From Schmidtea polychroa (lineage: Eukaryota): a DNA stretch of 64,000 nucleotides. The stretch lies in NCBI GenBank assembly GCA_044892525.1, contig CM097888.1:1674001-1738000 (forward strand). Direction: 5' to 3'. The translations under genes and the position numbers were made by a program. Positions 35,207-62,316 of this stretch are shown piece after piece. The notes under the pieces were generated by a model, which was given only the letters and a program-made list of their open reading frames with translations, did not search any database and was not told the origin of the DNA. Each line of letters opens with the position of its first letter. Position 1 is the stretch's first letter.

Positions 35207-35210
<4 letters not shown>

Positions 35211-35567: not shown

Positions 35568-35569
<2 letters not shown>

Positions 35570-36615: not shown

Positions 36616-37380
36616 CTACGAGAATGCTTCTCCTTCTGCGAGCATCTCGTCGATGTCAACGGGCAACCGGCGATCTTCGAGGAATTTGATACTGCCGGCC
36701 GGAACTACCCGGAATACTTCCTTTGTAGGAATGGAATGGGTAACTGTAATTTCCTTGATAGTTGCTTTGGCCACAGATAACGATGCTTCGAGCGCGGCCA
36801 TGGCATTTCTACGCTTCTGATTTTTTTCAGAACGCGTCAGCCGCTTACGCTTTCGATGGGGAAATGTAGCTTCTGCTGGGGACTGAAGGAGGTGTGGCAC
36901 GCGTACTGGAGCCAAGATGGGGTCCGATGGACCGCCAGCCGTAGGTCGATCGCCCGAAAGAACTGGGGCGGGAATTGGCGGCATTTGTGGGCCATGCCCT
37001 TTACAGCTGGGTGTTGTTGAGGTTTCAGCTAATTTGTGGTGCATTGGGAACACGTTAGTCCCATCTTGTATCGGGTACTCGCGAACTCGCTTCGCTAGTT
37101 CTGATTCGGAATACACCTTGTGCAGTGCCTCTGATTGGGCCTTTATGGTTAGCCTCTGGCACCTGCTTTCTTCCAGGAGACTGTCACGGCAGTGCTCCAA
37201 ACGCAGAATCTTGCTCTTCTCCTCCTTCATTTGTGGTGGGGAGAACCACGTTCCCTCATAGAGGTCAATTCTCTTCTTCAATTCCCCGATGTACAAGTGG
37301 AGCTGTGCGATATCGGCATTTTTATCAGCACAGGAAAAGCAAGGTCTGAGGGTTTTCCCGGAACTGGTTGAGGTATTCAT
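36616..37380 (-). CDS. 254-aa LTR-encoded protein (CxxC, coiled coil, Pro-rich, basic RKRKR..KRR patch)
   Basis: ATG-initiated 765-nt ORF, same translation in both LTRs, sense to the element, preceded by TTTAG. Confidence 0.6.
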   Translation of the reverse strand: MNTSTSSGKTLRPCFSCADKNADIAQLHLYIGELKKRIDLYEGTWFSPPQMKEEKSKILRLEHCRDSLLEESRCQRLTIKAQSEALHKVYSESELAKRVREYPIQDGTNVFPMHHKLAETSTTPSCKGHGPQMPPIPAPVLSGDRPTAGGPSDPILAPVRVPHLLQSPAEATFPHRKRKRLTRSEKNQKRRNAMAALEASLSVAKATIKEITVTHSIPTKEVFRVVPAGSIKFLEDRRLPVDIDEMLAEGEAFS

Positions 37381-40300
37381 CTAAATCGTTAAGGAATTTT
37401 TATTAAAAATAGAAAAAAATTCACTGGTGTGTTATTCATATTTTCGGAAAACGAAATTTAAGATCTCCCCGACCAAGTTATCCGAGAGTGGCCTACCAAT
37501 CTACCCCGTCGGCAAACATTCACCTTCATGCAACCTCAAACATCTAAACTAACCCATGAAATCATTACTACTTTATGAGAAGAAAACGGGATTCATGAAA
37601 ACAATTCATTATGCTAGCTTTTAGGTTTACTTTACGGGTTTGACTATTTTTAACTACTGCATGACTGTTAATTCGTTACTATGAACGCTATTATCTTAAT
37701 TATCGTTGTTACATTTTAACAATTATATTTTACTCCTTTTGCTGCTACGTCATTAAATTCTACGCGTATTGTATGATGAGCGGGAAATCGGCAGTTACCG
37801 GGACACCCCGTCTTGTATGTAGACCCCTCGGGTTTGTACGAAAATCATAATACTCTCACTTAAATTGTTATCGTGGATTATAATTTAGTTATTTCAATTT
37901 AACGCCATAAACATCGTCCTAGTGACGCTTAAATCGGGCGCAGTTATGTGTTCATTTGCTTGTCTATCTATACCGTCAACTATCGACGGGTTCGTTACGA
38001 TGCATGTTGGTGCATTTAACTAGCGACTTGCACACTGACACAAAAAATTTCTCGTCGCATCGCCATGTTCTCTGACGCAATCCAGTGGTCTACTAGCAGA
38101 TACAAGTTTACGACTCTCTCCCTCTGATTAGGTAATGATGATATCCACATGTGCACTGTGACCTAATCTGAGTGTGATGCATGTGTACATGTGGGCGAGC
38201 GATTAATAGAGGTAGAGTTGTAGAGAGATGCTCTAGTTGAGACGGGTACTCAGTTGGTGTGTCCAAAACTCAAGAAATTCGATTGTGTGGGTGACTTGCG
38301 GATTCAGTAGATAAAAATTACTCTATTTTCTGGATTTTCGATATTTGGTCGATTCACGATAAGACCACTCAATACACTCGATCGACTGCCGCCTTCTAAA
38401 TCAACTCGTTCGATGACTTTATCAAATTATCAGCCGATTTTCCCCCTCGGAAACTTATCTGGCCATGGGCAACTAATGATTCTCCTATCGCTATTGATAT
38501 CTTCACTCGGACTCACGGCAAGTGATTTATTTCCTTATCAAAAAATTTGTTTACTTTCCCCTTTTAGACGAGCCGCTGTCAACGTCAAACCAAACTTTAT
38601 CAGATATTCGATGTCAAGCTAAAGTCTAAATTAGTAAATGAATGGGTTTACTCGCTAATGTCCCTGCAATGTACCTCTCGGGGTTCAATTTTTAAGTGCT
38701 TAGCGGATCTTCCAGTGAAAACTCTAACAATTCATCGCCCATCCCTACTCAGACATCTATCAATATTCGACGGAAAAGCAAATTTTCCTAACAACAACGA
38801 ACTACTGATCTCAATCCGAAAAATTGTCTCCGACTTTGGAAATTTACATTATTTATTCTGAAACTTCAGCGTGACTTCATAAAAGAAAACGAAAGATCCT
38901 CTATCAGATCGCGCTCGATGTGAGAAATTCTACTTCCAACAGTATTCCACCTGCGGAGTCTCCTCACCCCTCATGACCCACCCAAGAAGGCAATCATCTC
39001 TGCCGCCGTTCTTGCATCGTCGTGAGGGACCGTTTGACTCGTCTTTCACAAAATCAACATTTAATATACAATTTATGAATAATAAGATGAATGAATGAAT
39101 CAAATAGTAGCAAATGGATCAGTAAAAATAAATGGATCAATAAAGCTCACCCGGCGACCCTATCATTTGGACTCCAAGTATGATGTTATTCATTCCACAC
39201 AACCGCAGCCTCATCATAACCTTGGTAGATCTCTCACATGATAAATATCCTTCTCTGCAAATGTCACATTTTCATTTTCAGCATCTTCGGGATTTCTTAT
39301 GAAGGTCAACCTTCCCACTGTTGTGTTCTCTGCCGTGGTACATTTCCAACTCATCCACATCATACTGGGAGCTCTCAGATGGTACAGTCGCCGGCACCAT
39401 GAAGAAAAGGCCATTTGTATTTCAATAAATTTATTTTACGAAATGAGTTTTGTCTTTCATCATTAATAAATTAACTAATACATATAAATCAATCGGCCTA
39501 CCGATAGTTTCAAAAACTGGAACGAAATCGAGTTTAAACTGGTTTCAAATTAATTGAAGGTAAATTCTGAAAATCTCTCGAATTGGCGTTTGCGATTCTA
39601 GTCCTGAATTCGGTGAAATATCTGAAGTCTATGCTCTGTAATCGTGAAAAATTAAAAGTGGTTTTTAAGTTTTTCTAAAATTTACCTGTAATCGTGAAAA
39701 ATTAAAAGTGGTTGTCGTCTAATTTTTCACGTTACATATATAGTATTTTTCGTCCAATCAGGACGCTACCTGCTTGTATTTTTACTATTTATTATTATTT
39801 TTATGTTTTTATCATCGTATTTTAAATTTTTAATGACCTGACTTATCTCTTATTATTATTTTATTTATTTTCTTGTTTTTACTATTTTTCTCCTATTTTT
39901 CCTGTGGATTTATTGCTACTTTATGGTAATATAATTTCTTGTTTTAATTAGACTTAAAGATAGTTTTATTTTTTATTTATTTCTTAAATTTCTCTTTTAT
40001 TTGTTGTCACTTTTTTACTTATTTTATTCTATTTCATCTGCTGGGTCCTAAATCGCTTTATTTCTAAATCTCAAGGGGTTTATTGGATTTTATTTTAGTT
40101 TGTTTACTTATTCTTATTCTTTTATTGTTATTTTATTGTTCCTTCCTATTTACTAGTGAGATTTCTATGGTACTTTATATTTTTATCTTATTTCATTTAT
40201 TTTTCAAGGATTACTTTTCTATTCGCTCCAGTTTTCGAAACTCCACGTTTTAGCCCAACAAATCACTCCGGGGCCCGTTAAAATTGCGCCCCGCAATTCA

Positions 40301-40490
40301 CATAATATCATACGTTTAACTCATACCTTTTTCGGCATAACAACTAATTTCACGGTCAACATTCACACAAACATAAAATTAAAATAACTAAATAATACTT
40401 TAATTAAACAGATAAAAGGACAAATATAAGCAAGCAGTGGCCACTTTAGGTGACCGGATTTATACACACAAAGTTTATGAATAGTCGATG

Positions 40491-41126
40491 TCACATGATC
40501 TCAAGGTTCGGAATGTTATTACTGTCTTGGTTGGTTGAGTTCTGGGTCGGATGGCTGGTCGAAGTTGTTATCGTGGGGAGCTGGATTGTAACAGGCATTT
40601 GGTCGGGGGATAGATTTTGTTGCATTTGGTCGGGTGGGTTTGGTTGTTGAAAATGTACTGCTCGTTTATGTTTATTTTTCGATCGTAGGTTCTTTCTTTC
40701 GTGTTTTTCGGATAGTGACTGGTTTCTTCTCCATGTTCGATGAATATCATACGCTTTCCAGATGACTAGTGCGCAGATGATAAGGGTTTCACTGATGGTA
40801 GTATAGAGTAAGACTTGGCTTTCTTTTACTTCCTTCTTCATGATGATTTCCTTCAAGGATTGTTGGGTGGTTTGTTCTTGTAAGAGAATTTCGAGCTGTT
40901 CGATTTTTTGGGTTTGTAGGTGGAGTTGCATTTGAAGTTTTTTCCAGACGACTTTGTTCCAGCATTGTTTCGGGATGTTGTTGGAGAGCTTTCTCTCGCT
41001 TTTTAGTTTGGTTAAAGGGTTTTGCTGTTTCTCGGGATTCTCCCAGAATGTTGGGATTGGCTGCCACATGGGTCTCCCGTTTATCGCTATCATCATTATT
41101 GTCACCAAGGTTGCTCCGAACCACAT
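40491..41126 (-). CDS. 211-aa putative type I membrane protein
   Basis: N-terminal hydrophobic MWFGATLVTIMMIAI, coiled coil, TM-like TISETLIICALVIW, basic stop-transfer segment. Confidence 0.6.
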   Translation of the reverse strand: MWFGATLVTIMMIAINGRPMWQPIPTFWENPEKQQNPLTKLKSERKLSNNIPKQCWNKVVWKKLQMQLHLQTQKIEQLEILLQEQTTQQSLKEIIMKKEVKESQVLLYTTISETLIICALVIWKAYDIHRTWRRNQSLSEKHERKNLRSKNKHKRAVHFQQPNPPDQMQQNLSPDQMPVTIQLPTITTSTSHPTQNSTNQDSNNIPNLEIM

Positions 41127-41181
41127 ACTGCTATACGAAAATTTTTATTTACAATTATTTACATTGATCATTCATCTTTAA

Positions 41182-41883
41182 TTATTGCCGGGTTTTCTTT
41201 TTACGGGTTTTCTCGGATGTTCTCATCACTCTCGTTTCTGCTTTTATTACTCGTTTTCTCAATTCGGGTAGTACTTTTAATTGTTTGTCTCTTTCGTCTA
41301 ACTGTTGCCTTAGGGTTATTATTTTTTCTTTTAGTGCTTTTATTTCTTGTGTTGCTCTTTCGAGGTTTCTATGGTTCATTATCTGTAGGAAATCATTTTC
41401 CCTTCCCCCGTCTTCTTCGTTGTCTATTTCCTGGTATTTGTTGTTCATTCGTCTCATTATCTCACATTCTTTCTGTTTTTGGTGTAGTTGGAGTTGTAAC
41501 TCTTTCAAGCTTTCTTGGTGTTTCCGTGCCTCGGTTTTCCAATAGTCACTAATCACTCCGTCGGCCTTTCGACTGGCCCTCTCCTGCCATAATTCTTCCG
41601 CGATCTTTTCCCAATTTCTCCCTCGCTTTCTTTGCTCGTGAAGCCATTCGTTTTCTTCCTCTACCTCTTTCTTTACTCCTTCTAACAAGATATATTCTCT
41701 TTTCAATACTTTAATCATTTTTCGATTATCTCTCCACCTTTCAACTAATCTTTCGTTTTCCTGTCTCTCTTCTTGTAATTCTTCCTTGATAGTTTTCTTC
41801 CTCTCCACTTCATCAACTTCAATTTCTCCCTCTTCTAATTCGATTATAGATGTTATGCTGGGTTGTCCGTTTTCGGTGTTCAT
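41182..41883 (-). CDS. 233-aa coiled-coil protein, unknown function
   Basis: ATG-initiated, E/K/R-rich with heptad pattern, same strand as pol. Confidence 0.7.
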   Translation of the reverse strand: MNTENGQPSITSIIELEEGEIEVDEVERKKTIKEELQEERQENERLVERWRDNRKMIKVLKREYILLEGVKKEVEEENEWLHEQRKRGRNWEKIAEELWQERASRKADGVISDYWKTEARKHQESLKELQLQLHQKQKECEIMRRMNNKYQEIDNEEDGGRENDFLQIMNHRNLERATQEIKALKEKIITLRQQLDERDKQLKVLPELRKRVIKAETRVMRTSEKTRKKKTRQ

Positions 41884-42061
41884 TTTCTATAATATATACA
41901 TAATTAATAGCTGCGCTACAGTGCGGCTTATACTTATACATTTATACGTTATTTTATAATCAGGGTTACAGTCCCTTTCATACTTTTACTGTACCATTAA
42001 TTTTTTTTTTTGGTTGGGATACAGGTCCCGATTTTTATATTTTTTATCTTTTCTTTTATCC

Positions 42062-43099
42062 TTATACAAAGGTCTCTTCCTGGCCTACATATCCCTCATC
42101 GCTTTCTACTGACGTTTGTAATTGGAGTGCGATGGGATCAAATGGGATGTAGTACCGGGGAATCTGCGCTCTAAGTTCTTGCACTTCGTCTCTTAGTGCT
42201 CTTGACACGTTAAGTTCCTCGTCCAACAGGTATGTTAGATACCTGGTTTCATCGTCTCTTACCTCTATCTGTTTTTCTAGCTCTTCCGCTTTTTCGCCGC
42301 TTTCCCATTTCTTGATCTCTATCTCCAGATTTTTAAGATTTTCGTTATACATTTTTCTTTCGTTTTCTAACTTTTTGTTTTTCCCCGCCAGTACCATATT
42401 TCTCTGCTCCAGAGCTCCTTGGTATCCGTTGACATCTCGTTCTAGTTCTGCGACCTTATTTACCAGTTCCACGAGTCGTCCTGACTGTTGAAGTATCAGT
42501 TCTTCCATTGCGGCATTCTCGTGCTCCCTTATGGAGATTTTCATGGCTAGATGTCTTTCAAATTCCATGGCTTTGGTCTGCCATGTTTGGCTTCGGGCCG
42601 CAATCTTTCTGAGCCGTTTCAGTTCTTCTCTTATGACCAGATTTTCCTCCCATTTGCCTTGTTCGCTTTCGTATTCTAATCTCATAGGCAATTCTTTCAT
42701 TTCTTTTTTCATCTCTTTGTTCTGCCGCTTCCAGTTTCGGGCTTCTGCCAATAGGTGATTCATTTTCCTTCCTTCCTTTTGTTTTTCTGCTTCTCGTTTT
42801 GTGTTTTCGTCCGTCAATCGTTTCCGTGCTTCCTGCACTAACTGTTTTAAATAGTGGCTGTGTGCTTCTTGGCGAGTGTTTTCCAATGATGCCCACTTAG
42901 AGGCTCTTTTGCATGCTTCTGCTTCGGTTCTTAAATTGTTTATTAACCACTGATATTTGTTATTCTCGTATTCCCTGGCCTCTTCGAGATGGTTGTGGGT
43001 CTGGTTCGTCAATTGTAACATTACTTTGACCCATTTTCCCTTATGGATTTTATTGACTTTGGTTTCGTGGTTTGGGGCTTCAGTTCCTTCTTGTGTCAT
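42062..43099 (-). CDS. 345-aa coiled-coil protein, unknown function
   Basis: Long ATG-initiated, E/K/R-rich helical ORF. Confidence 0.75.
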   Translation of the reverse strand: MTQEGTEAPNHETKVNKIHKGKWVKVMLQLTNQTHNHLEEAREYENNKYQWLINNLRTEAEACKRASKWASLENTRQEAHSHYLKQLVQEARKRLTDENTKREAEKQKEGRKMNHLLAEARNWKRQNKEMKKEMKELPMRLEYESEQGKWEENLVIREELKRLRKIAARSQTWQTKAMEFERHLAMKISIREHENAAMEELILQQSGRLVELVNKVAELERDVNGYQGALEQRNMVLAGKNKKLENERKMYNENLKNLEIEIKKWESGEKAEELEKQIEVRDDETRYLTYLLDEELNVSRALRDEVQELRAQIPRYYIPFDPIALQLQTSVESDEGYVGQEETFV

Positions 43100-43317
43100 C
43101 CTTGTCTAAATAACGATATCATTAACTTAACGTTGTACGCTTATATCTGGTTTATTATTTATTTATTTTTATAATTCGTTATAGGAGTTGTTTTAGGAAT
43201 TTTTCGCTTAAGTTTACCTTTGGTAGATTTGGGGGGATTTTCTACACTACTATATAATATTTTACTGGATATATACGCCGATATTTACAATTAGTATATA
43301 CAAAATTATTCGTCTCC

Positions 43318-44706
43318 CTACTCCGTCCTACTCTTCCCATCACGCCTCACCGCTATTTTTATGTATATAGTGTCGTTTCTCGTCATGTCTTCTACTTTCC
43401 GCTGTAGGATGAAATTTGGTGCTCCAGTTGCTGGTCCTTCTTCTTCCAAGGGCCTTTGGTAACATACGAGGTTTCCCGCTGTATGGAAACTCTGTTCGTG
43501 TATACTTTGATAGTTCATCATTGCAAGGTCTATTTTTGCTTTGAATGGCCATTCTATTAACTCGTCGTATGGCCCTTTGCACATCAAGAAGAATACTGAG
43601 AAATGCGTTCCGTATGCACTTCCATCCCCATTGGGGTATGCTTTCATTTTCATTTTATACCCGTTTTTCCATGAGTAGAATGCTGGACTTAGTAATGTTG
43701 TATCCTTTCCATTTCTCGCTCTCTGCATCTTCTCTTTTATTCCCGTTATTTTCCATATGTACGGAGCCGTTGGTATTAATTCGTTGAGGTTTAATTCGCT
43801 TACTTTTTGATGTAGTTCTTTCACCATAATGTTGCTAGTTTCTACTAGATCTGTCTGTATCTTTGTACTTGTTCTCGCCTCTTCAAATGCTTCCTTTTCT
43901 TCCAATAGTTCTTTTACCAACGCTTTTAGCGAGACTATTTCTCTTTCTAAGTTTTCGGTTTTCCTTTCGTTTTCCTGTACAACCGTTGACCATATTTCCG
44001 CGTGTGTTGATACGTTTTCTGCTAGGTGTTGGGGTAATTCTCCTCGGTGTAATTGTTTCGGACATCCCCATTTTCCTAGCACACACGTTATCTTTTTTCT
44101 TTCACACTCTTTTAGATGTTGAGCGAGTTTTATTACTCCGGGTTTATCGCATTTGTTGGGGCATTCTCCTCTGAATTCTGCGCACACTTTCTCCTCTTGT
44201 ATGTTGTGATGTTGACTGATTAGTTTCTTCCAGGTGTCGTTTTCTCCGCAATACTCGCATTTCTCTATTCTTTCTTCGCATCGACTTTGATGTTCTGCTT
44301 CTTCATTGACTTTAATCTCTTCTTGGCAACGTTTGCATTGACTGATTTTATACTCACATTGCTCCGTATGTTGCCTCACTTCCCATATCACTCCTCGCCA
44401 ATTACATGGGGTGTTTTTACATCCTAGGTTTGCATTCAACATATCTTTTACAGCTGCTTTATCTTCGTTTGTATCTCCCAAACTTGTTATCATTGTTTCT
44501 TTGCATACTGGGCACCATTGTGGTCCCTTCTTTATTATCTCCTCTACACATTCTCTGCACATTCTGCATCCACATCTGGTTTGGTGAGGTTCTCTTAATA
44601 AGCTCTTGCATATTCCACACGTTACATGGTTGTGTATTCGAATTGTGGTGGACTTTCTAATTTGTTCAACAATTTCTCTGAATTCTTCTCGTTGTCGCTT
44701 ATCCAT
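43318..44706 (-). CDS. TRAF: Full-length intronless TRAF (RING, TRAF zinc fingers, coiled coil, MATH), 462 aa
   Basis: RING CGICKSLLREPHQTRCGCRMCREC..CPVC; several C/H zinc fingers; MATH YIWKI..SPAFYS..GYKM..YPNGDG..GTHFSVFF..GPYDELIEWPF, closest by eye to the TRAF1/2/3/5 type. Confidence 0.92.
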   Translation of the reverse strand: MDKRQREEFREIVEQIRKSTTIRIHNHVTCGICKSLLREPHQTRCGCRMCRECVEEIIKKGPQWCPVCKETMITSLGDTNEDKAAVKDMLNANLGCKNTPCNWRGVIWEVRQHTEQCEYKISQCKRCQEEIKVNEEAEHQSRCEERIEKCEYCGENDTWKKLISQHHNIQEEKVCAEFRGECPNKCDKPGVIKLAQHLKECERKKITCVLGKWGCPKQLHRGELPQHLAENVSTHAEIWSTVVQENERKTENLEREIVSLKALVKELLEEKEAFEEARTSTKIQTDLVETSNIMVKELHQKVSELNLNELIPTAPYIWKITGIKEKMQRARNGKDTTLLSPAFYSWKNGYKMKMKAYPNGDGSAYGTHFSVFFLMCKGPYDELIEWPFKAKIDLAMMNYQSIHEQSFHTAGNLVCYQRPLEEEGPATGAPNFILQRKVEDMTRNDTIYIKIAVRRDGKSRTE

Positions 44707-44795
44707 TTCTATAATTATATATATACATATATTCGTTACCGGTACAGTTTCGTATTTTTATTTACATTTATTTACATTGCTATTTTAGGTTATAT

Positions 44796-45155
44796 TTATT
44801 GGCTGGAAGAGTCGGCCTCTTGTCCGCCCTCTTCCCTGTTGGTTAACCATTCTGACCAGTCTTCTATCTCCTCTCGCTCCATCTCTTCCGCGATTCTTAT
44901 TAACTCTTCTTCTTGCACCTGGCTGTATCGTGATATTCGGTCTATCTCTCGCTGCATTTGTTCTATTTTCATTCGTTGGTCTTCGATTATTCTTACATAA
45001 TTGAAGCCTTTATTTAAACTTTCGACTAAGCTTCTTTGTACAGCGAGTCCTTGTTCCTGTAAATTCGAAATCACTTGAGTTAACATTGCACATTGTTGTT
45101 TCCACATCTCCTCGGTTGTTGTACTGTGGTTTACTTCCTCGCCTATTCGCTCCAT
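44796..45155 (-). CDS. 119-aa coiled-coil/acidic protein
   Basis: First ATG at 45155 (the track starts at TTG 45179); helical, acidic C-terminus. Confidence 0.55.
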   Translation of the reverse strand: MERIGEEVNHSTTTEEMWKQQCAMLTQVISNLQEQGLAVQRSLVESLNKGFNYVRIIEDQRMKIEQMQREIDRISRYSQVQEEELIRIAEEMEREEIEDWSEWLTNREEGGQEADSSSQ

Positions 45156-45323
45156 TCTTAATTTATATATACTTTTCAATCCTTATCTAATTTTATTTTT
45201 ATATTAATTATCCCCATCATTATATACTATTGATACCGCGCTTATATAAAAATATAGAATACTGTTATATAAATAAATATTTCCTACTTACTTTTTACAA
45301 TCTATATACAGTCATAATCCTTT

Positions 45324-54300: not shown

Positions 54301-57300
54301 AGGGAGTATCTTTCTCCTATTATCGAATTGTCACAGTCGTAAATAGTAAATCCCGCGGCTCCACTGGTGCAGAGCATCCATATCATCATGGTCATCATTA
54401 GTGAATTAATCGACGCTTTTCTGCTGGCTGGGTCTTTCAATGGCAATTCCCATTCTAGCTCATGTAGTAACTTCTTCAACCGAATTTGCATTGATCTCTC
54501 TTGCTCGTTTTTTCGTGGCGCTTGTATGAGTCTTTTCCACCCACCGGCGCGGATGATATGTGGTTCGATTGTATTTTCAATGATTGTGACGGTCATTTCT
54601 ACATGATTTGCGAATTGTTTGTTAGGTATTTTCCTTGCTGCTAATCCCATCAAATTGTACATTAGATACGTTAATACTACTAAATGATGTTCGTCGTCGT
54701 TTGCGTTTAAAGTTAATTGTTCAATTACTCTTCTTGTCTCTTCCCAATCGGTTTTAGTGGTTTTTGTCTTCTCTTTGATTAATTTCGGAATTATTCCGGA
54801 TATTGTATTCCATAGTTGTCTGGCGTCTACACTTGCTACTTTTCGTTGCCATAACCGTCGCAATTGTGGGTTCGTTATTATTAGCATATCTTTTACTAGC
54901 TCTCGTATCCATTTTTCGCCTCTTTCGATAGTTGGCTGGGCCTCTTTTAGATCCCACACTATTTTATCCAGTTTCTCTAATCTGACTTGTCCTTGTTCTT
55001 GTTTCAGTTGTTCTCTAGTTTTAAATTCCGGTTTTTCTCCTTGCTTCTTGGGTCTCCCTTTTGCCCGTTTTTCCATCATTGTTCCGGCTTCCCTTGTATT
55101 TTCATAATTCGGGTTTCTCTCGTTATCCGTTCTTGGCAATGAACTATCGTTATTTCTTAGCCATTCGTTCCATTCGTCTATTATTTTGTCCGTTTGACCT
55201 TCTGGTGTTGCTTTCGTTGGTCCTTTCTGTCGTTGGAATTGTTCGTCGGTTTCGGTTTCTGTTGTATTATCGATAATCTCCTCGATACTCAGCTTATTTG
55301 GCTGCTGATAGCTAGTTGACGGTTGGCTTGTTGTCCATATTTCGGCTCCTGTCGGCCATCTTACCAGAATTGGTGATCTTTCTCCAGCTCCTCCATCGCT
55401 GTCTTCCAATATAATTTCCTCGATTTCCTCGGTTTCATTCGTTTTACTTGCCACTTTGTTAGGGCTTGGTGTACTCAAGCTACCTTTCGTAGGTTTACTG
55501 GATTTGTTCTTCCTTTTAATCGGTTTTCCCAATGTTTCTGCCATTGTCAATACATTGATCTCCCCCAATCTCATGGGTGTTATTCCGACATCTGCATTAT
55601 CATCCAACGATTTTCCGAATAGTTGTAGGTGAAATGGAGTTTCGTATGCTAATTTCTTTTTTAACTCTCTGATCTTTGTTGTTGGATGTACTTCTGTATC
55701 CTCAATGCTTTTGTCGGGATACTTGACTCGGATACGATACCTTTCCTGGGTATCTTGTGCCCATTCTTGGTTTCTCCATTTCCTAATAATTTGTTCTAGC
55801 TGTTCTGGGTACCATTCGTTATATTGTCTGTATTCCTCAATCGCTTTCGCCATTTCTCTTAGATTGTGGATATTCTCTGATGTCTTTAGGATGATGTTAG
55901 CCAATGCTATTACTTGACGTTTTTGATTTTTTGTTCCCGTTGCTAAGATATCACCTAATTGTTTATATCTTTCCTTCTCTTCTCGTTCTCGAGCTTCCAT
56001 CGCTTCTTCGCTATCCATATCGGCATATTCGCGTTCTTTCTTTCTCATCGCATGAATATGTCTGGTTTCCGTTTCACTTTCTGATGTAACATCCGTTTCG
56101 CTTCCGTCGTCCGATGTCGATTCTATTTCGTCCTCTTCATATTTTGGAGGTTCATCTTCCTCTTCTTCTGATTCACTTTCTATCTCACCAATGTCTGTTT
56201 CCACGAAAATCCCTTTCCTGATTTTCCATTCTTTGTTTTCCGCATTCCACGTCCTTTCCCATGGGGTTCGTCTGCAGGATCTCACACTTAGTTTCTTTAT
56301 TTTTCCTTGAAGCTCTTTTTCTTTTAACCACTGTTGATGAATTTCAATTATCTCTACTGATTTTTGATATAGCGTTTTCATCCTGTCTCGTATTTCTTTC
56401 TGGTATGTTATATCTCTTGTTCGGAATTCGTCCATGGGCAATATTCTGATGATTTGATGATTATCCCACATTCCCATTTCGCTTAGCGAGGTGTCGTCTT
56501 CGGCCCGTAATATTATTTTATCGTACATCATGACTACGTCATCTATCATCCCGTCGCTACTCTCGCTTCGTACTTTTTCCGTTATCTCTTGGTTTATCTT
56601 GGTTACTAAGTCATCTACCGTACTCTGATTACTCATCTTTATTCGTCGTTTCTCCTCGTTTGGTAACCATATGGTTATTTCTAATTTCTGCGGTTGCGTT
56701 TCTTTCAACCTGCCATATTTGTGGATCAAATTTATGGTTCTCCAATCGCTCATCCTGAGCAATTCTGTATCTCGTAATCGGCTCATTAGCTCATGCATGT
56801 CTGGAGTTCGTCTTGCTATGAGTAAATCCCAGTTATCTTCGACTTGTTCTTGAATTTGTTTGATTAATTTATCTAGATTTCGTCGCAAGGTGCATTGTTT
56901 TATTTGTTCCAGCTTCAGCTTGATGCTAAAATCGTACTCGGCCTTGGCGTCTTTAGCCCATTCGTGAATATTTGCTGGTTGTTTCTCTTTATACAATTTC
57001 AATATTTGAGTTTCTCCTGGCCAGATCAATGCATCTATTAGGTGCATGTCTGGTTTGATTTGTTCTCCTTGATGTTGATACAGATATTCTTTCTTTCTCG
57101 AGCTGCCCAAATGTTCTCTTATCCAATCGAAAAGGTCGTCTGTGACTGCATTTTTTATCCATATTCTCTCGAGTCCTTTACTCGTTCCGATTTTTATTAC
57201 ATAGCGTGTTGTCTCCGCTTGTTTCATTTTTTCCATATACTTCTTTATTATCACTTTTTCCTCGTTTGGTATTAGGTCTTTTTCGTTTCTTTCTAGTTTC

Positions 57301-59759
57301 ATTATCTTTTGTATGAAGCGTCGGTATGGTATGATGTCAATGAATTCCTGGTTTCTTACCACCACTGGAAGTATTTCCTTTACTTGTTTTATCGCTTCTT
57401 CTCTTTCTTTTCTCAATTTCATTTCGATATTCTCGTCTTCGCTTTCGCTTGTCACGTCGCTTTCTCTTTCATCTTCATCTGCTCCGATCTTTTCTCTTAG
57501 TTGGTCGATATTCTCATTTAACTGTAACATTTCTCCACCAAGGCTACTCACATAATCCTCATCGTCATCTGTTGACAACACCTTCTTTGTTGTCCTCATC
57601 ATATTAATTCGTAAATTTCTCATTCTTGGTACTTTCTTTAACTTGTTGTTCTCGAGTATCGTTAGCTCCTCTGAGTCTAATTCTCGTATCATATTATGCT
57701 TTAGATGATTAATCTGTTTTTCATTTTCGTTATTTTCTGCTTCTGCTTCTGTTTTTGTTGGCTCATTTTCTCTTTCGATTTTATCTTTTATCTTTTTCCA
57801 AAATATTTTCTGAATTCTCTGATTTCCTTTTAGTGGTGTTGTTGAATTTTCCTTTTTTGCTGCTGTAATTGTTTCTTTCGGTTTCTCTGGTTCGCTCATA
57901 GGTACAACTCTTGGATTTTTACCGTAATTGTAACAATATTGCTCCTTTATCTCCTTTACCATCCTCATCATATTTATTCGTAGTGGTTGTTCTTGTCGCT
58001 GCTGAATTCGCTCTCTTTTTATCCTTTCTTCTTCAGCTTGTAGTCTTTGCCATTCTTGTGCATGTTGTTGCACTTCATAATTGTTAAGATTCTCGGTGCT
58101 TCTCATCATGCGTATATTCTGGGTTGGTTGTGGTACTTGCTCTTGTCTCGGTCTCATCATTTGTTGCATCATCTGCTTCATTTGTGAAATTTCTTGCATC
58201 ACATTCATTTGCTTTCCCTCACTAGGATTACTTTGTCGTTGCGGATTTGGTGCATAGTTATTATTTCGCTGTGGTGGTCGTTGCTGTTGGCTCCTTTCTC
58301 GACAGTCTCTTGAGATATGACCTAGTTGCCCGCAGTTAAAACATCCTCTTGATTGGCATATATTTTCCGTGTGTCCTCGTCGTCCACACCTATTGCAATT
58401 TGCGTTTCGGTAACAATCTCTATCCCAATGTCCTGGTTTACCGCATGTTCGGCATTGTTTGTTATCGTTCATATTTCGTCGATTATTAAAGTTGTTCCCA
58501 TTGTTCGAGTTGTTGCGTTCACTGTTATTCCCGTTTGATCGTCCTTGTGGTGGTTTGAAAATTTGATGTGCTCCTGGTATAAACTGATTCATCTTGGGTT
58601 CATGATTATTGTTATCCCCATTTTCCGTTTTCACCGTTGCTGTTGCGATTCTTCCCTCCTCTTGCATGACGTTCATTTGTGCTGGGAGGTGTAGTTCGCA
58701 TCTTGTGGCCCAATCTATGGCTTCTTCTAGTGTTTTACACATTTGACATCCCACCGAGGCCCTTACCTCTTCTCGGCGTAGTCCTTCTATGAAATAACCA
58801 ATTAAATTTTCCTCCGGCAAGTTTCCGTTCATGGCCTTCTTTGCCAATCTTCGCAATTCACTTGCGTATAACGTAATTGACTCGTTTGCTCTTTGTTTTC
58901 TACTTGCCAGTTCACCTAACGCTTGATTTATTGGTTTGCTGGCTCCGAATGTTTTTCTCAAAAATGTTTTGATGTTTTCCCAATTGTCTAATTTCGTATT
59001 TCTTTCTTTTGCTTCCAGATATACTTCGAGTGCGCTATCGCACAAAAACAGAGGCATTCGTTTACTAATTGCTTCGGGTGTCCATCCACACACATCGATA
59101 TAGACTTCAAAGTTGGTTATGAACGTTGCCAACTTGTTCGCATTCCCGTTGAATGGTTCGCCTCTAAATTTTTCCTTATACTCGTCAGTTTTTACCACAT
59201 TCATCTTAATTGGTTCTTGAAACTCTATTATTTCCTTTAAATTTTCCAGCGATGTAGCTAAGCTATGGACGGATAATTCTTCTGTTGACCCGGTTAGGTT
59301 GTTTGTTATATCGGATAGACTTTCTCTACTTCTAGATCGGCTGGGCGTATGTCCGGCTGTGGGGTTTTCTTGATCGTATATCGGTGTTTTGTGGGGTCTT
59401 TTTGCTCCTTGTGATATTCCTCTCTTCTGCCTAAATGATCGTCCTCTTTTGAGTTGATCTAATTCGTCTCCTGAAAATAATACGTCTCCTGGCTTACTTG
59501 AAGATCTAAGGTTGGGTTTATCCGTGATTTTCCTTTTACTCTTTTCTGTCTTTTCACGTGGGTTTTCTACGGTTAGCGTCTGCTGAATTGGTCGAGTTCG
59601 GTTTTGATATTGTCTTCCTTTGTGCGGGTTCTGAATTGCTTTTCCTGGGTTGTTTGTATATTCTCTGGATTCCTCTTGAGCTGGTTCTGAATTGACTTGG
59701 TTGGATGGATGTCTACAATGAAAATATGATATCGTGTTGCCTTTGCTTACACGAATCAA
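45324..59759 (-). CDS. 4,811-codon Gag-accessory-Env-Pol-ANK-membrane polyprotein
   Basis: Uninterrupted 14.4-kb frame; first in-frame ATG at 59204 (codon 186); domains listed separately. Confidence 0.95.
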   Translation of the reverse strand: MIRVSKGNTISYFHCRHPSNQVNSEPAQEESREYTNNPGKAIQNPHKGRQYQNRTRPIQQTLTVENPREKTEKSKRKITDKPNLRSSSKPGDVLFSGDELDQLKRGRSFRQKRGISQGAKRPHKTPIYDQENPTAGHTPSRSRSRESLSDITNNLTGSTEELSVHSLATSLENLKEIIEFQEPIKMNVVKTDEYKEKFRGEPFNGNANKLATFITNFEVYIDVCGWTPEAISKRMPLFLCDSALEVYLEAKERNTKLDNWENIKTFLRKTFGASKPINQALGELASRKQRANESITLYASELRRLAKKAMNGNLPEENLIGYFIEGLRREEVRASVGCQMCKTLEEAIDWATRCELHLPAQMNVMQEEGRIATATVKTENGDNNNHEPKMNQFIPGAHQIFKPPQGRSNGNNSERNNSNNGNNFNNRRNMNDNKQCRTCGKPGHWDRDCYRNANCNRCGRRGHTENICQSRGCFNCGQLGHISRDCRERSQQQRPPQRNNNYAPNPQRQSNPSEGKQMNVMQEISQMKQMMQQMMRPRQEQVPQPTQNIRMMRSTENLNNYEVQQHAQEWQRLQAEEERIKRERIQQRQEQPLRINMMRMVKEIKEQYCYNYGKNPRVVPMSEPEKPKETITAAKKENSTTPLKGNQRIQKIFWKKIKDKIERENEPTKTEAEAENNENEKQINHLKHNMIRELDSEELTILENNKLKKVPRMRNLRINMMRTTKKVLSTDDDEDYVSSLGGEMLQLNENIDQLREKIGADEDERESDVTSESEDENIEMKLRKEREEAIKQVKEILPVVVRNQEFIDIIPYRRFIQKIMKLERNEKDLIPNEEKVIIKKYMEKMKQAETTRYVIKIGTSKGLERIWIKNAVTDDLFDWIREHLGSSRKKEYLYQHQGEQIKPDMHLIDALIWPGETQILKLYKEKQPANIHEWAKDAKAEYDFSIKLKLEQIKQCTLRRNLDKLIKQIQEQVEDNWDLLIARRTPDMHELMSRLRDTELLRMSDWRTINLIHKYGRLKETQPQKLEITIWLPNEEKRRIKMSNQSTVDDLVTKINQEITEKVRSESSDGMIDDVVMMYDKIILRAEDDTSLSEMGMWDNHQIIRILPMDEFRTRDITYQKEIRDRMKTLYQKSVEIIEIHQQWLKEKELQGKIKKLSVRSCRRTPWERTWNAENKEWKIRKGIFVETDIGEIESESEEEEDEPPKYEEDEIESTSDDGSETDVTSESETETRHIHAMRKKEREYADMDSEEAMEAREREEKERYKQLGDILATGTKNQKRQVIALANIILKTSENIHNLREMAKAIEEYRQYNEWYPEQLEQIIRKWRNQEWAQDTQERYRIRVKYPDKSIEDTEVHPTTKIRELKKKLAYETPFHLQLFGKSLDDNADVGITPMRLGEINVLTMAETLGKPIKRKNKSSKPTKGSLSTPSPNKVASKTNETEEIEEIILEDSDGGAGERSPILVRWPTGAEIWTTSQPSTSYQQPNKLSIEEIIDNTTETETDEQFQRQKGPTKATPEGQTDKIIDEWNEWLRNNDSSLPRTDNERNPNYENTREAGTMMEKRAKGRPKKQGEKPEFKTREQLKQEQGQVRLEKLDKIVWDLKEAQPTIERGEKWIRELVKDMLIITNPQLRRLWQRKVASVDARQLWNTISGIIPKLIKEKTKTTKTDWEETRRVIEQLTLNANDDEHHLVVLTYLMYNLMGLAARKIPNKQFANHVEMTVTIIENTIEPHIIRAGGWKRLIQAPRKNEQERSMQIRLKKLLHELEWELPLKDPASRKASINSLMMTMMIWMLCTSGAAGFTIYDCDNSIIGERYSLRDIEECRQASPNKLDIVKKKVSYHVYQESDFIRTQARECVVSKKVLAYYCGQYSYSTLILPGLDKEIVPIQREDCKELFRTGAMRIRDGVTIHGQSGMIKTESIYVAGRVKSTDGSCNGGTYTIRGEVISGVVVIESYTVELKEYEAQFDANNYQMKTNPACRATENVCRTGISTIIYEANTQKCRLQLLKSALFNEVKGEIYENEDDDEENGNVRMRNGKPVPPSPKEKRLTTQKTPTALITDDPDIGMRFIREKETTKCDSIVYRTNYAGIYMSRQVIDRAVGKVATEDVKLYLYANNKMDFLFHRGQTTMQKVYYDLIQNDCSLNKEILKTKLAIAITHPDNTMPSLPLPDGHFGRMVGEVMYTYACTKTFARLPRKPTIPPGKCANELEISYKGRNRFVQPVTRIMNPIGFYPNTFNCSNAYGPLYEKPDGKWIMLPVKTEVQEPKKFGLIELATEQDFKPIDVSKAGMYSPEDLETARLNVLFPARRESILSNMVTITGGTNFQSGPNYELLLSPDHFQQATSNMMKAMWGRFLVFGQMMAGILGIILIIQIVRVILTQMLACFDIYKREKKVNWKLIVGFLPFLAKTMVLHGHSKDIHRIKRLIKILTKIKGTDEEVGRRFRKTMYDEATRTQLKKNKPKFLDRFRNRSNSSDSDDDDNGNDKYPYPSRNPNEKPIETAPYWEKEKTNTWIANGSYIPPDIVGQQTALTMTQNMYPQLPSQPGMNYMPTRRTKSVDQADDVRTIAVMSSPGGAAVTVMIQINGKETSAMIDTGANVSAIAINQIPSKCWKDIEQTTIHIIACSKETVDVVGRWWTTLRYQDNEIETYLAVIPKLSEPCIIGTDLMPELFKEVVIDLTTMCLKDKMGRICKMNAIIRCPEKIIVPAKSQMICQIKVDAGMEGEVIFEPSKSFEKRRELPLAREIITINEDGEIPINITNFEEEDKIIYENERLGRLTPMIDIELPKIINETTKADELWIIDSTLLTEKEKERLQQLLIEYKDIFAISDLDLGACDVTLHAIPLIDETPIALRPYKLAEKQKEIAEAEVQKMLDAQVIEPSCSPWQFPVVMVKKKDGTQRFCIDYRKLNAVTKRDTYPLPDINEMLLMLQGAAYFTSLDLKSGYWQIKVKEEDKEKTAFTLGRDLYQFRKMPFGLTNAPASFQRCMNFVTHGIKQCMVYIDDLLIYSATFKQHLEDIRNVFVRLRQWKLKLKPSKCDWAKEKVTFLGHIVSAKGKEPDPRNIEKIKTCPAPKTVTQVQEFLGLCGYYRKFIKNYAGIAKPIQELVKKDISFIWGAEQQKAFETLRDKLIEAPILVHPDFKKPFLLATDASGYAAGAILGQLDEEGKERVIGYYSRTFKKHEKNYSVTEREALAIIQAIKHFRYLLWGHEICITTDHQPLVWLGQHKEASSRLMRWAMQLQEYSPFIKFKAGRANANADCMSRFIFPDLVDHEMQRICLMVAEDLDFCQLRKDQQEDTELKQIIEYVKTGKAEVYEKDQKLKEHMDKQRHRYIIEKDWLLIMDGEKRLMCIPENRRKDLLTQYHDGRLGGHMSSKKTLARMKQKYFWPTLTEDVTEWVKNCITCATRKNTGTKWKAPLKPMPVPAEPMTMISMDVVGPLPESDRGNIYILVITDYLTKFPEAFAMADQKARTIAKILVEEICCRYGTPKQILTDQGTNFMSEIMSEVTNYFKIAKLRTSPYHPQTNGMTERFNGTLIQMLSNYVDRHQRDWDEYIKLCLMAYRMSIHASTKMSPFKLMYGRECNMPMDLEYQPPISQYMEIDDYVTKFKERMQEIWETAGLNIKFYQESYKELHDRKKNVKQHTFQTGDWVMIETPELIPGTTKKLQRNGKGPYEILFVGETNVRVRLVNNPFTRPIYVNVARCKPIPKTATSQPEGRTLTTRSQTYRINMLQQINEPTGNRLGLQPSEAEKIIKEVKVKMPGWAEDRLDFEILGGLLTMIENYANRERTHPLLRVVKSQWPILFTITDHYGDTPLHKLLKVGSNEQILETIEAFRDCNISTDQENNQGYTPLMIAANRDKAKDIIIALLETGSKITTQDHNQKNALHHAIEGKSTEAFIILVDLISYEDNREIGNMYDGLLTAIKEKLTTITGILIAWRNPIKNDYMVDINETFTKGENTLMREAMRGHHLFEIPNQLLQRGIKFSNHKDEQLIRKRITNFEKAISQFTDKVQVKFWDTVSVLHMMETMNNIRENYLSIIQVLTAEERINSSNKKKIKMKKVKARESEEQVDQPITDIATTSKPKIINSDQEIVVRKAKEVFFEEMQDLSDEAILAKITKTVHTYARDQTTNLDIGKIKTFIPLAFTLPTKDSRTPLQQAILAAKENRAITIIRILRDFGEESNAKNEQGETAMMYAAITNIHPKTLHILHQSGSRLDEISNEGNSTMDWATIQPNLEMIRFICKNATRTEVENICKNTSQFQWNTIRMNLEAMKLLLTWRIPQSNKYAININEFYENGENAMVKNTLTKGGTPKIIMIVLNREDLKFTQNLHEQKRIGKHRRIQLRELVKEWNRKRHVATGRKEFEPEAKLARNRVLTAYRRLLNEINVEDDILNDRGGDKDDKDDKDDDNNEKGRNGNKEKEKSEENNQENNDASRKKEENNPRNRRKQEEKTNSGKQRVCLLFTNKEMETNMMIMILVLTMVEMITAQGGMRTIKEAKETENKDNKEEELKQEKKKQVQEQQWDLKEEWDLKERCILGRCMSRAYQRLVLKNEDAEPITEVRIQEAYRNREGKRITKVKGKEVHLGKGGEVVITQLQPRKEHKVCIARLRPGEDCLQYVIQQQPPKEYTICIWRKDTARECRRYPGKRGKKRKIDDEKDEQGKRKKNSEKHQDNYVSEEEMEKIQKMAKEGMNEEIARIRGMMKGNGKDGNLKSTETISTITSKEKAEIISIKQMMWISGIIITGAFLIITGGTIKIIKDRRHHGELEMARIRNFQHRVKRPSNIKQEQWVEAWNAQRPPSSRI
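45468..46330 (-). other. Polyprotein C-terminal membrane module (signal-like segment, FN3-like motif, TM helix)
   Basis: MMIMILVLTMVEMITAQ; ITQLQPRKEHKVCI (resembles FN3 IxxLxPxxxYxVCV); TM MMWISGIIITGAFLIITGGTIKII, then basic tail. Confidence 0.5.
46790..48330 (-). other. Two ankyrin-repeat modules downstream of integrase
   Basis: DHYGDTPLHKLL, NNQGYTPLMIAA, DHNQKNALHHAI; then DSRTPLQQAI, NEQGETAMMYAA, NEGNSTMDWA. Confidence 0.85.
48630..49780 (-). other. Integrase (HHCC, DDE core, GPY/F); no chromodomain
   Basis: YHDGRLGGH..CITC; SMDVVGP; LTDQGTNF; HPQTNGMTERFNGTL; GPYEI. Confidence 0.95.
50000..50330 (-). other. RNase H
   Basis: LATDASG, YSVTEREALAI, TDHQPL, RWAMQL, NANADCMSR. Confidence 0.95.
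50560..51240 (-). other. Reverse transcriptase (Gypsy type)
   Basis: RFCIDYRKLN, SLDLKSGYWQI, MPFGLTNAPASFQR, YIDD (50742-50753). Confidence 0.97.
51670..52050 (-). other. Retroviral-type aspartic protease
   Basis: AMIDTGANVSAI (DTG at 51963-51971) and CIIGTDLM. Confidence 0.92.
52510..54398 (-). other. Chuvirus-like envelope glycoprotein (signal peptide, Cys-rich ectodomain, C-terminal TM)
   Basis: Signal MMTMMIWMLCTSGAAG; YDC..YSLRDIEEC; YQE..ARECVV..YYCGQYS; C-terminal WGRFLVFGQMMAGILGIILIIQIVRVI..WKLIVGFLP. These match, as recalled, Chuviridae G and the G carried by BEL/Pao elements. Confidence 0.75.
54528..54990 (-). other. Bcl-2-like helical segment
   Basis: IEPHIIRAGGWKRL resembles BH2 (WIxxxGGWxxF), preceded at suitable spacing by a degenerate BH1-like RVIEQLTLNANDDEHHLVVL. 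Confidence 0.45.
55548..57205 (-). other. Three ubiquitin/SUMO-like domains (about 56995-57205, 56440-56687, 55548-55743)
   Basis: For example YRIRVKYPDKSIEDTEVHPTTKIRELKKKL..LQLFGKSLDDNADV (TI.ELK, L.F.GK.L.D) and STVDDLVTKI..DDTSLSEMGM. Confidence 0.55.
58302..59204 (-). other. Gag capsid-like region plus three CCHC zinc knuckles
   Basis: FIEGLRREEVR, TLEEAIDWATRCE; CRTCGKPGHWDRDC, CNRCGRRGHTENIC, CFNCGQLGHISRDC (58302-58454). Confidence 0.93.
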
Positions 59760-60427
59760 TCATTCCTTTTTGCCACATTCAAGCACAGACACCGTTTTAG
59801 GGCCTCTGTTATACTTCTCTTCATTTCCCCTCATACGCTTCTTCGCGGAATATAATTTCCCATCAACCCATATTTTTCGTCGATTTTAAATTATCTATTT
59901 GGGGTGGTAACAATTATCTATATAGTCGTATAAATTATCTATAGTTAGCATTTATAATATCGATAGGTCGTTGTCAGTTACTGCTTATTACCCCCCATAT
60001 TTTCTTAATCCTTTTACGCGGTTCCGCTATTTTACTTAATCTTTCATCTCTGTTTCCCCTTATTTGGTTCTACTCTGTAACCAAAACAAAATTCGTTTAA
60101 CCGGTTTAAACCAAAAAAATTCTGTAGAACTTTGTCTACTTGTCTGGGATCCCTTTTTTAATTAATTAATCACCTTCCTCTTTTACTCATCACTTATTCT
60201 TTATTTTCATTATCTCTTTAATTCATTTTCCTTTTCCGTTTCTCTTTCCCACTGAAAAAAAAAATTTCATTATTACTTCCCACGAGCTCGTTTAATCCTT
60301 TCTAAATTCAAATATCATATTTCAAACTCACTTTGCTTCTAGCTAGCTTTAATATTCCATCTCACTAGTAATTTAAATGTTATCAACTTGTAGCTTGAAT
60401 GCTATCTCACTATTACTTTAGGCCTTT

Positions 60428-60782
60428 ACGACTGGCTGGCACTTTTCAACAGCTCAATCTTCTTCTCCTGACCGGTTGGACTATTCAACAACTCGATCTT
60501 ACGACTGGCTGGCACTATTCAACAGCTCAATCTTCTTCATCTCCGAACTGGCTGGACTTTTCACAGCTCAGTTTTAATTTTTCCTGACCGGCTGGATTTT
60601 TCAACAGCTCGGCCTTAATATCTCCGACTGGCTGGACTTTTCACAGCTCAGTTTTAATTTCTCCTGACCGGCTGGACTTTTCAACAGCTCGGCCTTAATA
60701 TCTCCGACTGGCTGGACTTTTCACAGCTCAGTTTTAATTTTTCCTGACCGGCTGGACTTTTCAACAGCTCGGCCTTAATATC
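60428..60782. repeat. Nine ~40-bp repeats in the element leader (alternating ~79-bp dimer)
   Basis: Core GACYGGCTGG(C)ACTWTTCA(A)CAGCTC. Confidence 0.9.
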
Positions 60783-61366
60783 TCTAAACTCTGCATGCTT
60801 CCGTTCCTTTTTGTCTTTATTCTATACTGTCATCTTCCTATTTTTACTTTTATTTGTCGACTTAATCTGTACCGCTTTGGAAGGTTTCCCCTTTCCCCCC
60901 TTGCTTAAAACGCAAAACGATCGCATTGATCCATTTCTGCATTGGTATGGTGATCAGCCATACCGCAGAAACTTTTCAATATTCGCGATGGTACCTCGCC
61001 TTACATCTCTTACTCGGGGTGATCGGTTATCCCCTCCCGAACGGTTTTTCAATTATCGTACCTCCCGAAGGTGGCTCGGTTTATTCCCCCTTTAATCTTA
61101 TGTTGGGACTAGCTCCACTTTATGTACTCGATTTAAATTTTAAAATACCCTTTCTTCATGGTGAAAATTATGATACAACAGATCAAATTATAGCTTCGCA
61201 AAATGAAATAAACACACAAAAATGATTTATTGATTATTCAGTCCATGCTACATATGATATATGATACCATTATTAAAATATTAATGAATCAAATCAAAAA
61301 AAATTAAAATATTTTAGTTTAATTGTTCAACCATCCAATTTCTCTCACCGAGCGACGATCACGTAC

Positions 61367-61846
61367 CTAACTGAAGTAGATTGTGTGCTTCTCTTTTATT
61401 ACACATGTGCACATAGAACACCGGATTAAACTGGCGGCGCATTCGTCACAATGGCTAAGGTGCCCACAAGGTAGAATCAGAATTTTGACAGGTCGCATCT
61501 TGCAAATGTTACAAGTTCTCAAGGCCGCTGCTTTCTCTACTATTGATGTTCGTATCCGCTGAGACAGAGTTTTGACTCGTTCGCGTATCCTCACATATTC
61601 GATGTTCAGCGCTGGGTCGTCGAGACGTTGCTGAAACCATTGGTAATGAATCGACAAGTCGGTATCGGTATTTGTTGATCCTAATCTGTCGGTTAGAAAG
61701 TTTTGTTTGGATATCAGCGGTGCGTTGTGGCTTTGTTGTTCTAGCAGTTCTATTTGTTTCAGTTTTTCCCTTAATGTTTTTATTGAATCATTTTCTATTT
61801 CGACGAACCGGCTTAGCTGTTGTAGATGTTGTCTAGCGTCTGACAT
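61367..61846 (-). CDS. 159-aa coiled coil + C-terminal IAP/MDM2-type RING, no BIR
   Basis: CNICKMRPVKILILPCGHLSHCDECAASLIRCSMCTCVIKEKHTIYFS resembles IAP RING CKICMD..IVFIPCGH..C..CA..L..CPICR..I...F.S. Confidence 0.85.
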   Translation of the reverse strand: MSDARQHLQQLSRFVEIENDSIKTLREKLKQIELLEQQSHNAPLISKQNFLTDRLGSTNTDTDLSIHYQWFQQRLDDPALNIEYVRIRERVKTLSQRIRTSIVEKAAALRTCNICKMRPVKILILPCGHLSHCDECAASLIRCSMCTCVIKEKHTIYFS

Positions 61847-62298
61847 ATCTAAATGAATGTGTTGTTATTATTTGTTCTTACTAGTATTAGCAATAATATT
61901 ATTACGTTGTATTTAATATTCGTTTCTCTTTTATTTGTTATTGTTTCTAGCTTTCGTATTTTATTTAGTCTTTTTAACAATCCCCGTCGTATTTTTGACT
62001 TTAATCTTTTAATTTTATTGTCATTACTTTCTTTTGTCTCCCCTTTTTAATTTAATAAATTAAAATTAAACAAAGTAACTAATTCCCGTTTCCTTCTCTC
62101 ATCATACTCTATCATATACATTCATACTCATTTAGGTTCATCTTTATTCATACATGCTCTATTTTCAGTTCGTATCATCATTCTATTGTATTACGATATC
62201 GATTCGTTTCAGTCCCGATTCCATTTTTAATCATAATTAATTAAATTGTTAATCTAACACATCATAACACAATAATAGGTAATCAACAAATCGAATTC

Positions 62299-62316
62299 AT
62301 CCCGGCTGAGCCCCCA
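62299..62316 (-). promoter_or_regulatory. Primer-binding site, tRNA-Pro-like
   Basis: Minus strand TGGGGGCTCAGCCGGGAT, 16/18 match to the vertebrate tRNA-Pro PBS TGGGGGCTCGTCCGGGAT; 7 nt from the LTR end. Confidence 0.8.

Follow-up and report, generated by a model that had tools for sequence, protein, structure and literature searches.

How does a retrotransposon express a row of accessory open reading frames (ORFs) on either side of its polyprotein gene? The question is raised by a 30,423-bp long terminal repeat (LTR) element of the Burro type of Ty3/gypsy, found in a stretch of 64,000 nucleotides (nt) from Schmidtea polychroa (assembly GCA_044892525.1, contig CM097888.1, positions 1,674,001 to 1,738,000 of the forward strand), which we call the window. 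The element, like all of its features given below in window coordinates, lies on the minus strand; it spans 36081 to window-equivalent 66503. An initial annotation of the window had noted a splice-acceptor-like AG just before each accessory ORF, and offered cis-splicing from a common leader, an operon resolved by spliced-leader (SL) trans-splicing, or internal TATA promoters as explanations. We consider it probable that the ORFs are expressed by cis-splicing from a common LTR leader, whose own intron is regenerated at strand transfer.

The 5' LTR promoter and exon 1 fall outside the window (window-equivalent 65956-65879), and we describe them from the 3' LTR (36081..40260; 4180 nt, TG..CA, 1 mismatch to the 5' LTR). 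Approximately 520 nt into the LTR, there are in order a reverse CCAAT box (ATTGG; 39754..39758), a TATA box (39735..39742, LTR position 519), a predicted exon of ~27 nt, an AG|GTAA donor, and an intron of ~50 nt that ends in a copy of the exon. The predicted exon 1 (39686..39713, repeat copy 1) starts at a pyrimidine-A step at TATA+29, contains no ATG, and ends in CAG before the donor. The mini-intron (39636..39685; 50 nt, GT..CAG) has copy 2 of exon 1 as its last 28 nt (39663-39636), with a branch-like YTRAY motif 20 nt upstream of the AG.

To see how general this arrangement is, we surveyed 36 distinct promoter segments from 51 LTRs; the CCAAT box was in all of them, being part of the search motif. 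The duplicated exon is present in 29 segments: 26 that were scored by script, with the donor at TATA+55-57 and a GT..YAG intron of 38-54 nt ending in the exon repeat, and three in which the donor is a variant (GTTAG, GCAAG) or there is one mismatch. LTR type L137, for example, has a GC donor (AG|GCAAG) and an intact duplication. The mini-intron is missing in four, probably five, segments, and two further segments are disrupted. Copy 2 is nearest to its own copy 1 in all 15 exon types (mean identity 0.97 vs 0.62). The copies agree in 14-15 of 15 types at each position from -25 to -1, compared with 6/15 at the donor and 7/15 at -26, and the 20-26-nt spacer between them is unique sequence. Homopolymer indels are common to both copies in types L010, L016, and L070. 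All 15 types have YTRAY 16-21 nt before the mini-intron AG, and 13 have no ATG in exon 1.

RNA polymerase II (Pol II) usually starts about 30 nt from a TATA box. A pyrimidine-A step is found at TATA+29-31 in 28/28 cases, and the repeat begins at TATA+25-31 in 27/28. Ordinary tandem duplication is disfavored because the repeat stops at both edges in 15 different sequences; since those edges coincide with the predicted cap site and the donor, they are indirect evidence that the donor is used. Just before copy 2, 5 of 23 rows have G where the start pyrimidine would be; set against a G content of 8% in the spacer (p = 0.03), this hints weakly that the cap may have been copied. Conservation alone points to the presence of a cap-proximal major donor.

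Altogether, these features suggest the following cycle. Pol II would start ~30 nt past the TATA box, and the ~27-nt leader exon of the 5' LTR would be alternatively spliced to one acceptor per frame, including that of the gag-pol polyprotein: the LTR donor would join either the mini-intron acceptor, yielding genomic RNA, or an ORF acceptor (LTR ORF, RING, gag leader, or 3' accessory). Packaged RNA would lack the 5' mini-intron, and minus-strand strong-stop DNA would then end in exon 1 plus exon 2, anneal to copy 2 plus exon 2 of unspliced 3' LTR RNA, and be extended through the intron and copy 1. Each cycle would restore the intron and donor and rewrite copy 2 from exon 1; exon 1 would therefore have to double as branch point and acceptor, as is seen. 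Strand transfer is taken as described in PMC12789967; its application to the Burro mini-intron is ours. We infer that the leader donor serves eight ORF acceptors from where these acceptors lie, from exon 1 being nearly free of ATG, and from a donor-first rule, by which a cis donor is reported to beat the SL at a downstream acceptor (PMC4558846).

The AGs lie where the initial annotation placed them, in the contexts that it quoted. They precede six internal ORFs (ranges include the acceptor): the 159-aa RING ORF (PF13920; 61367..61860, acceptor G at 61849), the 119-aa ORF (44796..45165, G at 45157, a weak AAG), the 462-aa TRAF-like ORF with RING, TRAF zinc finger, and MATH domains (43318..44720, G at 44709), and the 345-aa (42062..43130, G at 43106), 233-aa (41182..41910, G at 41887), and 211-aa ORFs (40491..41140, G at 41131). 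The seventh precedes the 254-aa LTR ORF (36616..37380; second copy at 62859-63623 in the 5' LTR), which has no match in Pfam or PDB; its acceptor is at 37381..37400, with G at 37381 (63624 in the 5' LTR). A plain AG 0-6 nt before an ATG is a weak signal: on the element strand, it accompanies 305 of 655 ATGs. The reported TTTAG/TATAG form is less common: T[TA]TAG is within 6 nt of the ATG in six of the seven ORFs, against a background near ATGs of ~1.5% (10/655 on the element strand, 10/579 and 5/539 on host strands). Dinucleotide shuffling of the upstream 40 or 60 nt (5000 shuffles; motif picked post hoc) gave means of 0.49 and 0.36 versus the observed 6 (p = 2e-4). The claim that every accessory ORF has such an acceptor held for most sites, which are YAG, but the 119-aa site is AAG, and an eighth acceptor before gag had been overlooked.

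We compared the acceptors in ten copies from diverged subfamilies (TRAF 69-92% identical) together with near-identical ones, having dropped off-target anchor rows (RING 1, TRAF 1, 345-aa 0, 233-aa 0, 211-aa 11, 119-aa 1). Every distinct variant has YAG within 9 nt of the ATG at the RING (9/9), TRAF (9/9), 345-aa (9/9), 233-aa (10/10), and 211-aa (9/9) sites. At the LTR ORF, all 40 distinct upstream 40-mers (61 starts, leaving out two matches with no nearby in-frame ATG) combine a pyrimidine tract (0.67-1.0) with a YAG no more than 10 nt from the ATG, about half TAG and half CAG. YAG is therefore kept in diverged copies at six of the seven sites first noted. YTRAY branch-like motifs lie 20 nt upstream of the acceptor for the 345-aa ORF and 21 nt for the 233-aa ORF. 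It is well supported by this conservation that the AGs act as splice acceptors. They could instead be left over from host exons that the element captured, or come along with an A/T-rich motif of the spacers, with the ORFs reinitiated or untranslated. Indeed, the TRAF, 233-aa, and 119-aa sites adjoin TGTATATA motifs and have little pyrimidine tract, and contigs of one sequencing run (X1, below) read through unspliced. However, YAG stays as flanking bases change, TAG and CAG replace one another at the LTR-ORF, RING, 345-aa, and 211-aa sites, and ATGs are excluded after the gag-leader site; we regard this explanation as very improbable.

The gag-leader site is the eighth acceptor (59713..59730). 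Its TAG is present in 100/100 matches listed (of 286), and just the free -4 base varies (T, G, or C). Between this acceptor and the gag ATG is an ATG-free stretch (59205..59712): in 5/5 copies, no ATG occurs across 508-705 nt, where 6-9 are expected, compared with 27-33 upstream of the site. The polyprotein that follows (4626 aa; 45324..59204) comprises gag (aa 51-144), CCHC, a Monjiviricetes-type fusion protein (aa 1869-2208), protease (aa 2398-2489), reverse transcriptase (RT), RNase H, integrase, and ankyrin repeats. The final ~107 codons before the gag ATG (59205-59530) are open in the gag frame in four of five copies, as are 80 codons in the fifth. Near the start of this extension is a conserved ACG at 59525 in an A-3/G+4 context, and our guess is that gag might have a non-AUG start there. 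Changes in the extension number 18-35 at third versus 8-14 at second codon positions, yet 17-27 amino acids change, so the pattern is no more than suggestive. For splicing of the complex-retrovirus type, the tally is YAG at seven of eight ORF sites and AAG at one. The leader also contains a 40/80-nt tandem repeat (60426-60784), which has grown to >1 kb in copy L067.

Several observations weigh against cis-splicing from a regenerating LTR leader. We aligned contigs of runs X1 and X6 (both only guessed to be RNA), X2, and X3 on 40450-46000, which holds five accessory acceptors; among those listed, with a further 446 loose ends and 5 joints beyond the listing, there was no loose end or splice-shaped joint at any of the five, and the X1 contigs, which span all 30 bins of this region, run unspliced through the 211-aa and 119-aa acceptors. 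Genome pattern searches gave 0 matches to spliced retrocopies, although their power is low, since a splice from exon 1 to a RING, gag, or accessory site takes out the primer site, and one pattern was unable to match family-1 U5-donor ends. None of the best 100 of 127 exon-1 matches runs on into an ORF. The 119-aa site is AAG in 8/9 variants and TAG in 1/9, and exon 1 contains an ATG in 2/15 types. Intron loss is also explicable by DNA deletion between the repeats: one element has no intron in either LTR, and in another just one of the two LTRs has lost it (L058 vs L059). Under the model, introns would reach 25 kb and R would measure ~3.2 kb, both unusual. The model also leaves two more donors, at 62575 and 45291, without explanation, and these could serve some acceptors instead. 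Finally, the copies share descent, so the counts are not independent.

Other candidate splicing traces were rejected. A joint at 41164-44806 has other letters between its sides, in three runs, and we read it as another subfamily misplaced on a shared spacer motif. Shortened elements (L102-L106, L068, and L063) have deletion ends that are not GT-AG. In L068 (165-2483), the deletion drops the 119-aa ORF and joins the polyprotein C-terminus in frame to TRAF as a 772-aa ORF, which echoes the published report that cargo in Burro can take the form of polyprotein domains or of separate ORFs. A 20-nt poly(A)-like loose end at 45574, in the polyprotein 3' end, occurs in one X6 contig and may be internal priming.

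The first of the additional donors is a U5 donor-like GTAAG near the LTR 3' end (62570..62575, G at 62575; 36332 in the 3' LTR), kept 145-170 nt after the LTR poly(A) site in 75/75 cases and in 97/100 among the matches listed. We rejected it as the main leader donor because the sequence before it has 1-9 ATGs in every type listed and it lies after the poly(A) signal. It may suppress 5' polyadenylation, as U1 at the major donor is reported to do in human immunodeficiency virus 1 (HIV-1) and foamy viruses (PMC12789967). The second is GTAAGT (45286..45291), 32 nt past the polyprotein stop in 97/100 among the matches listed (of 238). This conserved site would fit a foamy-virus-like internal promoter close to where the polyprotein gene ends, with the 45291 donor feeding the acceptors or with TATATAAGC at 45248 starting an unspliced 119-aa mRNA, which would account for the weak AAG. 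TATATAAGC (45240..45248), a possible internal TATA box in the spacer before the 119-aa ORF, is kept in 9/9 copies, and many LTR types have exactly this sequence as their TATA box. However, the spacers of 9/10 copies have no CCAAT box, there is no TATA at the LTR-like 56-nt spacing before the 45291 donor, and the donor consensus is lost in two copies (L062 and L066). TATAAGC does occur upstream of three ORFs, as initially reported, but while it is kept before the 119-aa ORF in 9/9 other copies holding the spacer, this is true of only 4/10 before the 233-aa ORF and 0/10 before the 345-aa ORF. TATAAGC was thus rejected as a general internal promoter, leaving the 119-aa ORF as the single possible case, and we judge promotion from within the element to be unlikely.

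Trans-splicing has to be weighed because planarians use SLs (PMC10899757; PMC12582326): exon 1 and the mini-intron could be as described, with the distant 3' accessory ORFs, and perhaps others, receiving a host SL as in an operon. The spacers between ORFs (168, 89, 218, 178, and 55 nt) bear out the 55-218 nt first given and fit the <=300-nt operon criterion used in the planarian SL literature, and AATAAA is present in four of five, in line with the earlier "most." Acceptors in flatworms are reported to be often shared by cis and trans splicing (PMC12582326), and mRNA of the Caenorhabditis elegans gypsy element Cer1 occurs with and without SL1 (PMC3315495). However, the spacer AATAAAs have no U-rich element: T makes up 18-34% of the next 50 nt, versus 48-56% at three likely real sites. 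These are AATAAA after the RING ORF (61226..61231) and ATTAAA after the last accessory ORF (40399..40404), each with a U-rich downstream tract, and the signal-like AATATA of the LTR (36479..36484), which is AATAAA or AATACA in LTRs of other types and has U/GU-rich sequence downstream. Under cis-splicing, RNAs would end at these three sites, after the RING, 211-aa, and LTR ORFs. Nor are the acceptors free of upstream cis donors, as expected for an SL operon; three are conserved, one of them directly before the cluster in 97/100 copies among the matches listed. Flatworm SLs are reported to end in ATG, but the AG-ATG gaps of the internal ORFs (1, 2, 3, 4, or 6 nt) are not consistently multiples of 3 and have no frame preference; the LTR ORF, with gaps of mostly 0 or 9 nt, is compatible. 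The operon option is weakened by these observations. SL trans-splicing is less likely than cis-splicing from the common leader, and we doubt that it supplies the accessory ORFs.

The spacers also contain a repeat, TGTAHATA, which includes the motif TGTAAATA that the initial annotation had correctly found in two of them. Nine occurrences (41146..45310; starts at 45310, 44776, 44766, 44727, 43302, 43289, 41900, 41163, and 41153) all lie in the five spacers, that is, 9 in 708 nt compared with 0 in the remaining 27 kb of the sense strand covered by the count and one antisense; 3000 spacer shuffles gave a mean of 0.62 and a maximum of 4. In eight copies, the motif is free to vary at position 5 only. 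It is, letter for letter, the Pumilio response element consensus UGUANAUA (PMC11182014), on the sense strand and outside coding sequence, with variation confined to position 5. Unlike usual Pumilio elements, these candidate sites sit between retrotransposon ORFs. A Forkhead reading of TGTAAATA was rejected because position 5 is T 41, A 31, C 2, and G 0. Pumilio is predicted to bind these motifs, and might dampen or localize the longer RNAs. Short conserved hairpins with ACTGTA/CCTGTA-type loops are also found in the 233-aa and TRAF spacers (41920-42030 and 44735-44760).

Leader splicing would give the cargo genes of Burro a means of expression. One such gene (Burro1 B-IAP) reportedly protects stem cells in planarians (Lee 2026, cited in PMC13465017), and the repression of Burro is reported to be lifted when smedwi-2 is knocked down (PMC8532177). 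We propose, tentatively and with less confidence than for leader splicing itself, that Burro elements combine a self-regenerating intron, one donor for at least eight mRNAs including gag-pol, and Pumilio sites that tune accessory genes in stem cells.

The remaining features concern the identity of the element and its surroundings. Judged by its sequence, the element is a young Ty3/gypsy of the Burro type. It has two 4180-nt LTRs with 1 mismatch between them, TG..CA ends, a 4-nt target duplication, and the order protease, RT, RNase H, and integrase. The 3' part of the 5' LTR is at 62324..64000 and continues to window-equivalent 66503. Next to it is a primer-binding-site-like stretch (62299..62316), conserved between subfamilies, which may resemble tRNA-Pro. 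Placement in Burro/GYPSM1 follows the published description (PMC6431247): the total is >30 kb, the internal region (22,063 bp) is within the 25-kb upper bound, env is in frame between gag and protease in one polyprotein, and the cargo includes ankyrin, MATH/TRAF, and RING domains (Pfam). The genome has at least 31 scored DNA matches to the element, at least 150 scored TRAF-domain matches (identity 100% down to 71%), and at least 390 matches to one LTR motif. Homologue searches yielded only distant TRAFs (17) and one env-like protein, none with genomic context. Inserted in or beside one Burro copy is another element (L055:1325-9308), possibly Polinton-like, whose eight tandem ORFs are separated by very short spacers. 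Within the window, there is a Penelope-like element on the minus strand (31204-35577) with a 626-aa RT ORF (32388-34268, PF00078), a duplicated 3' part (31204-31503 / 34271-34570), and TAA/TTA microsatellites. Host-side ORFs (within 6369-6734, 15391-16440, and 20424-21791) include a RING protein and ankyrin-repeat ORFs, and one is presumably a proteasome-alpha-like fragment.

Retroelements normally lose introns through their RNA stage. An exon repeated at the end of its own intron would avert this loss at strand transfer, and from the repeat edges both the transcription start and the splice junction are predicted at single-base resolution. Penelope-like elements that retain introns and Drosophila TART with its co-evolving repeats also keep an intron or homogenize two repeats via reverse transcription; however, both are non-LTR, and neither is known to have an exon duplicated as its own intron end. 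The Burro family itself is already known, and the splice architecture and duplicated leader exon appear to be the new part. Our element shares with Burro/GYPSM1 of dugesiid planarians (PMC6431247) its size, LTRs, hundreds of copies, ankyrin repeats, accessory ORFs, cargo of the TRAF/MATH and RING kinds, and a single giant gag-env-pol polyprotein in which env sits between gag and protease. It differs in that TRAF is a downstream accessory ORF. BIR and BCL2-like motifs had no match in the element proteins at the level of Pfam profiles (E<=0.05). The available text of that description is silent on accessory-ORF expression, splice sites, and a duplicated exon. Among literature listings and abstracts, we found neither a description of where Burro is spliced nor one of an intron whose end repeats the exon before it, though Grohme 2018, Lee 2026, Rossi 2014, or their supplements may cover Burro transcripts.

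Cer1 (PMC3315495) is likewise a gypsy element with a spliced subgenomic mRNA in an SL-using host, but it is described with one spliced product, partly SL1-capped, and no row of accessory ORFs. The nearest parallels in layout are complex retroviruses (HIV-1, human T-lymphotropic virus 1, foamy viruses, and mouse mammary tumor virus), which also have a common leader, an acceptor per ORF, an ORF inside the LTR, and a donor-like site ~150 nt after the LTR poly(A) signal. Here, the element is Ty3/gypsy, gag-pol itself is apparently spliced, the predicted R is very long, and the first intron would lie wholly inside R and end in a copy of exon 1. If this is true, a Ty3/gypsy element would have the splicing complexity of a complex retrovirus.

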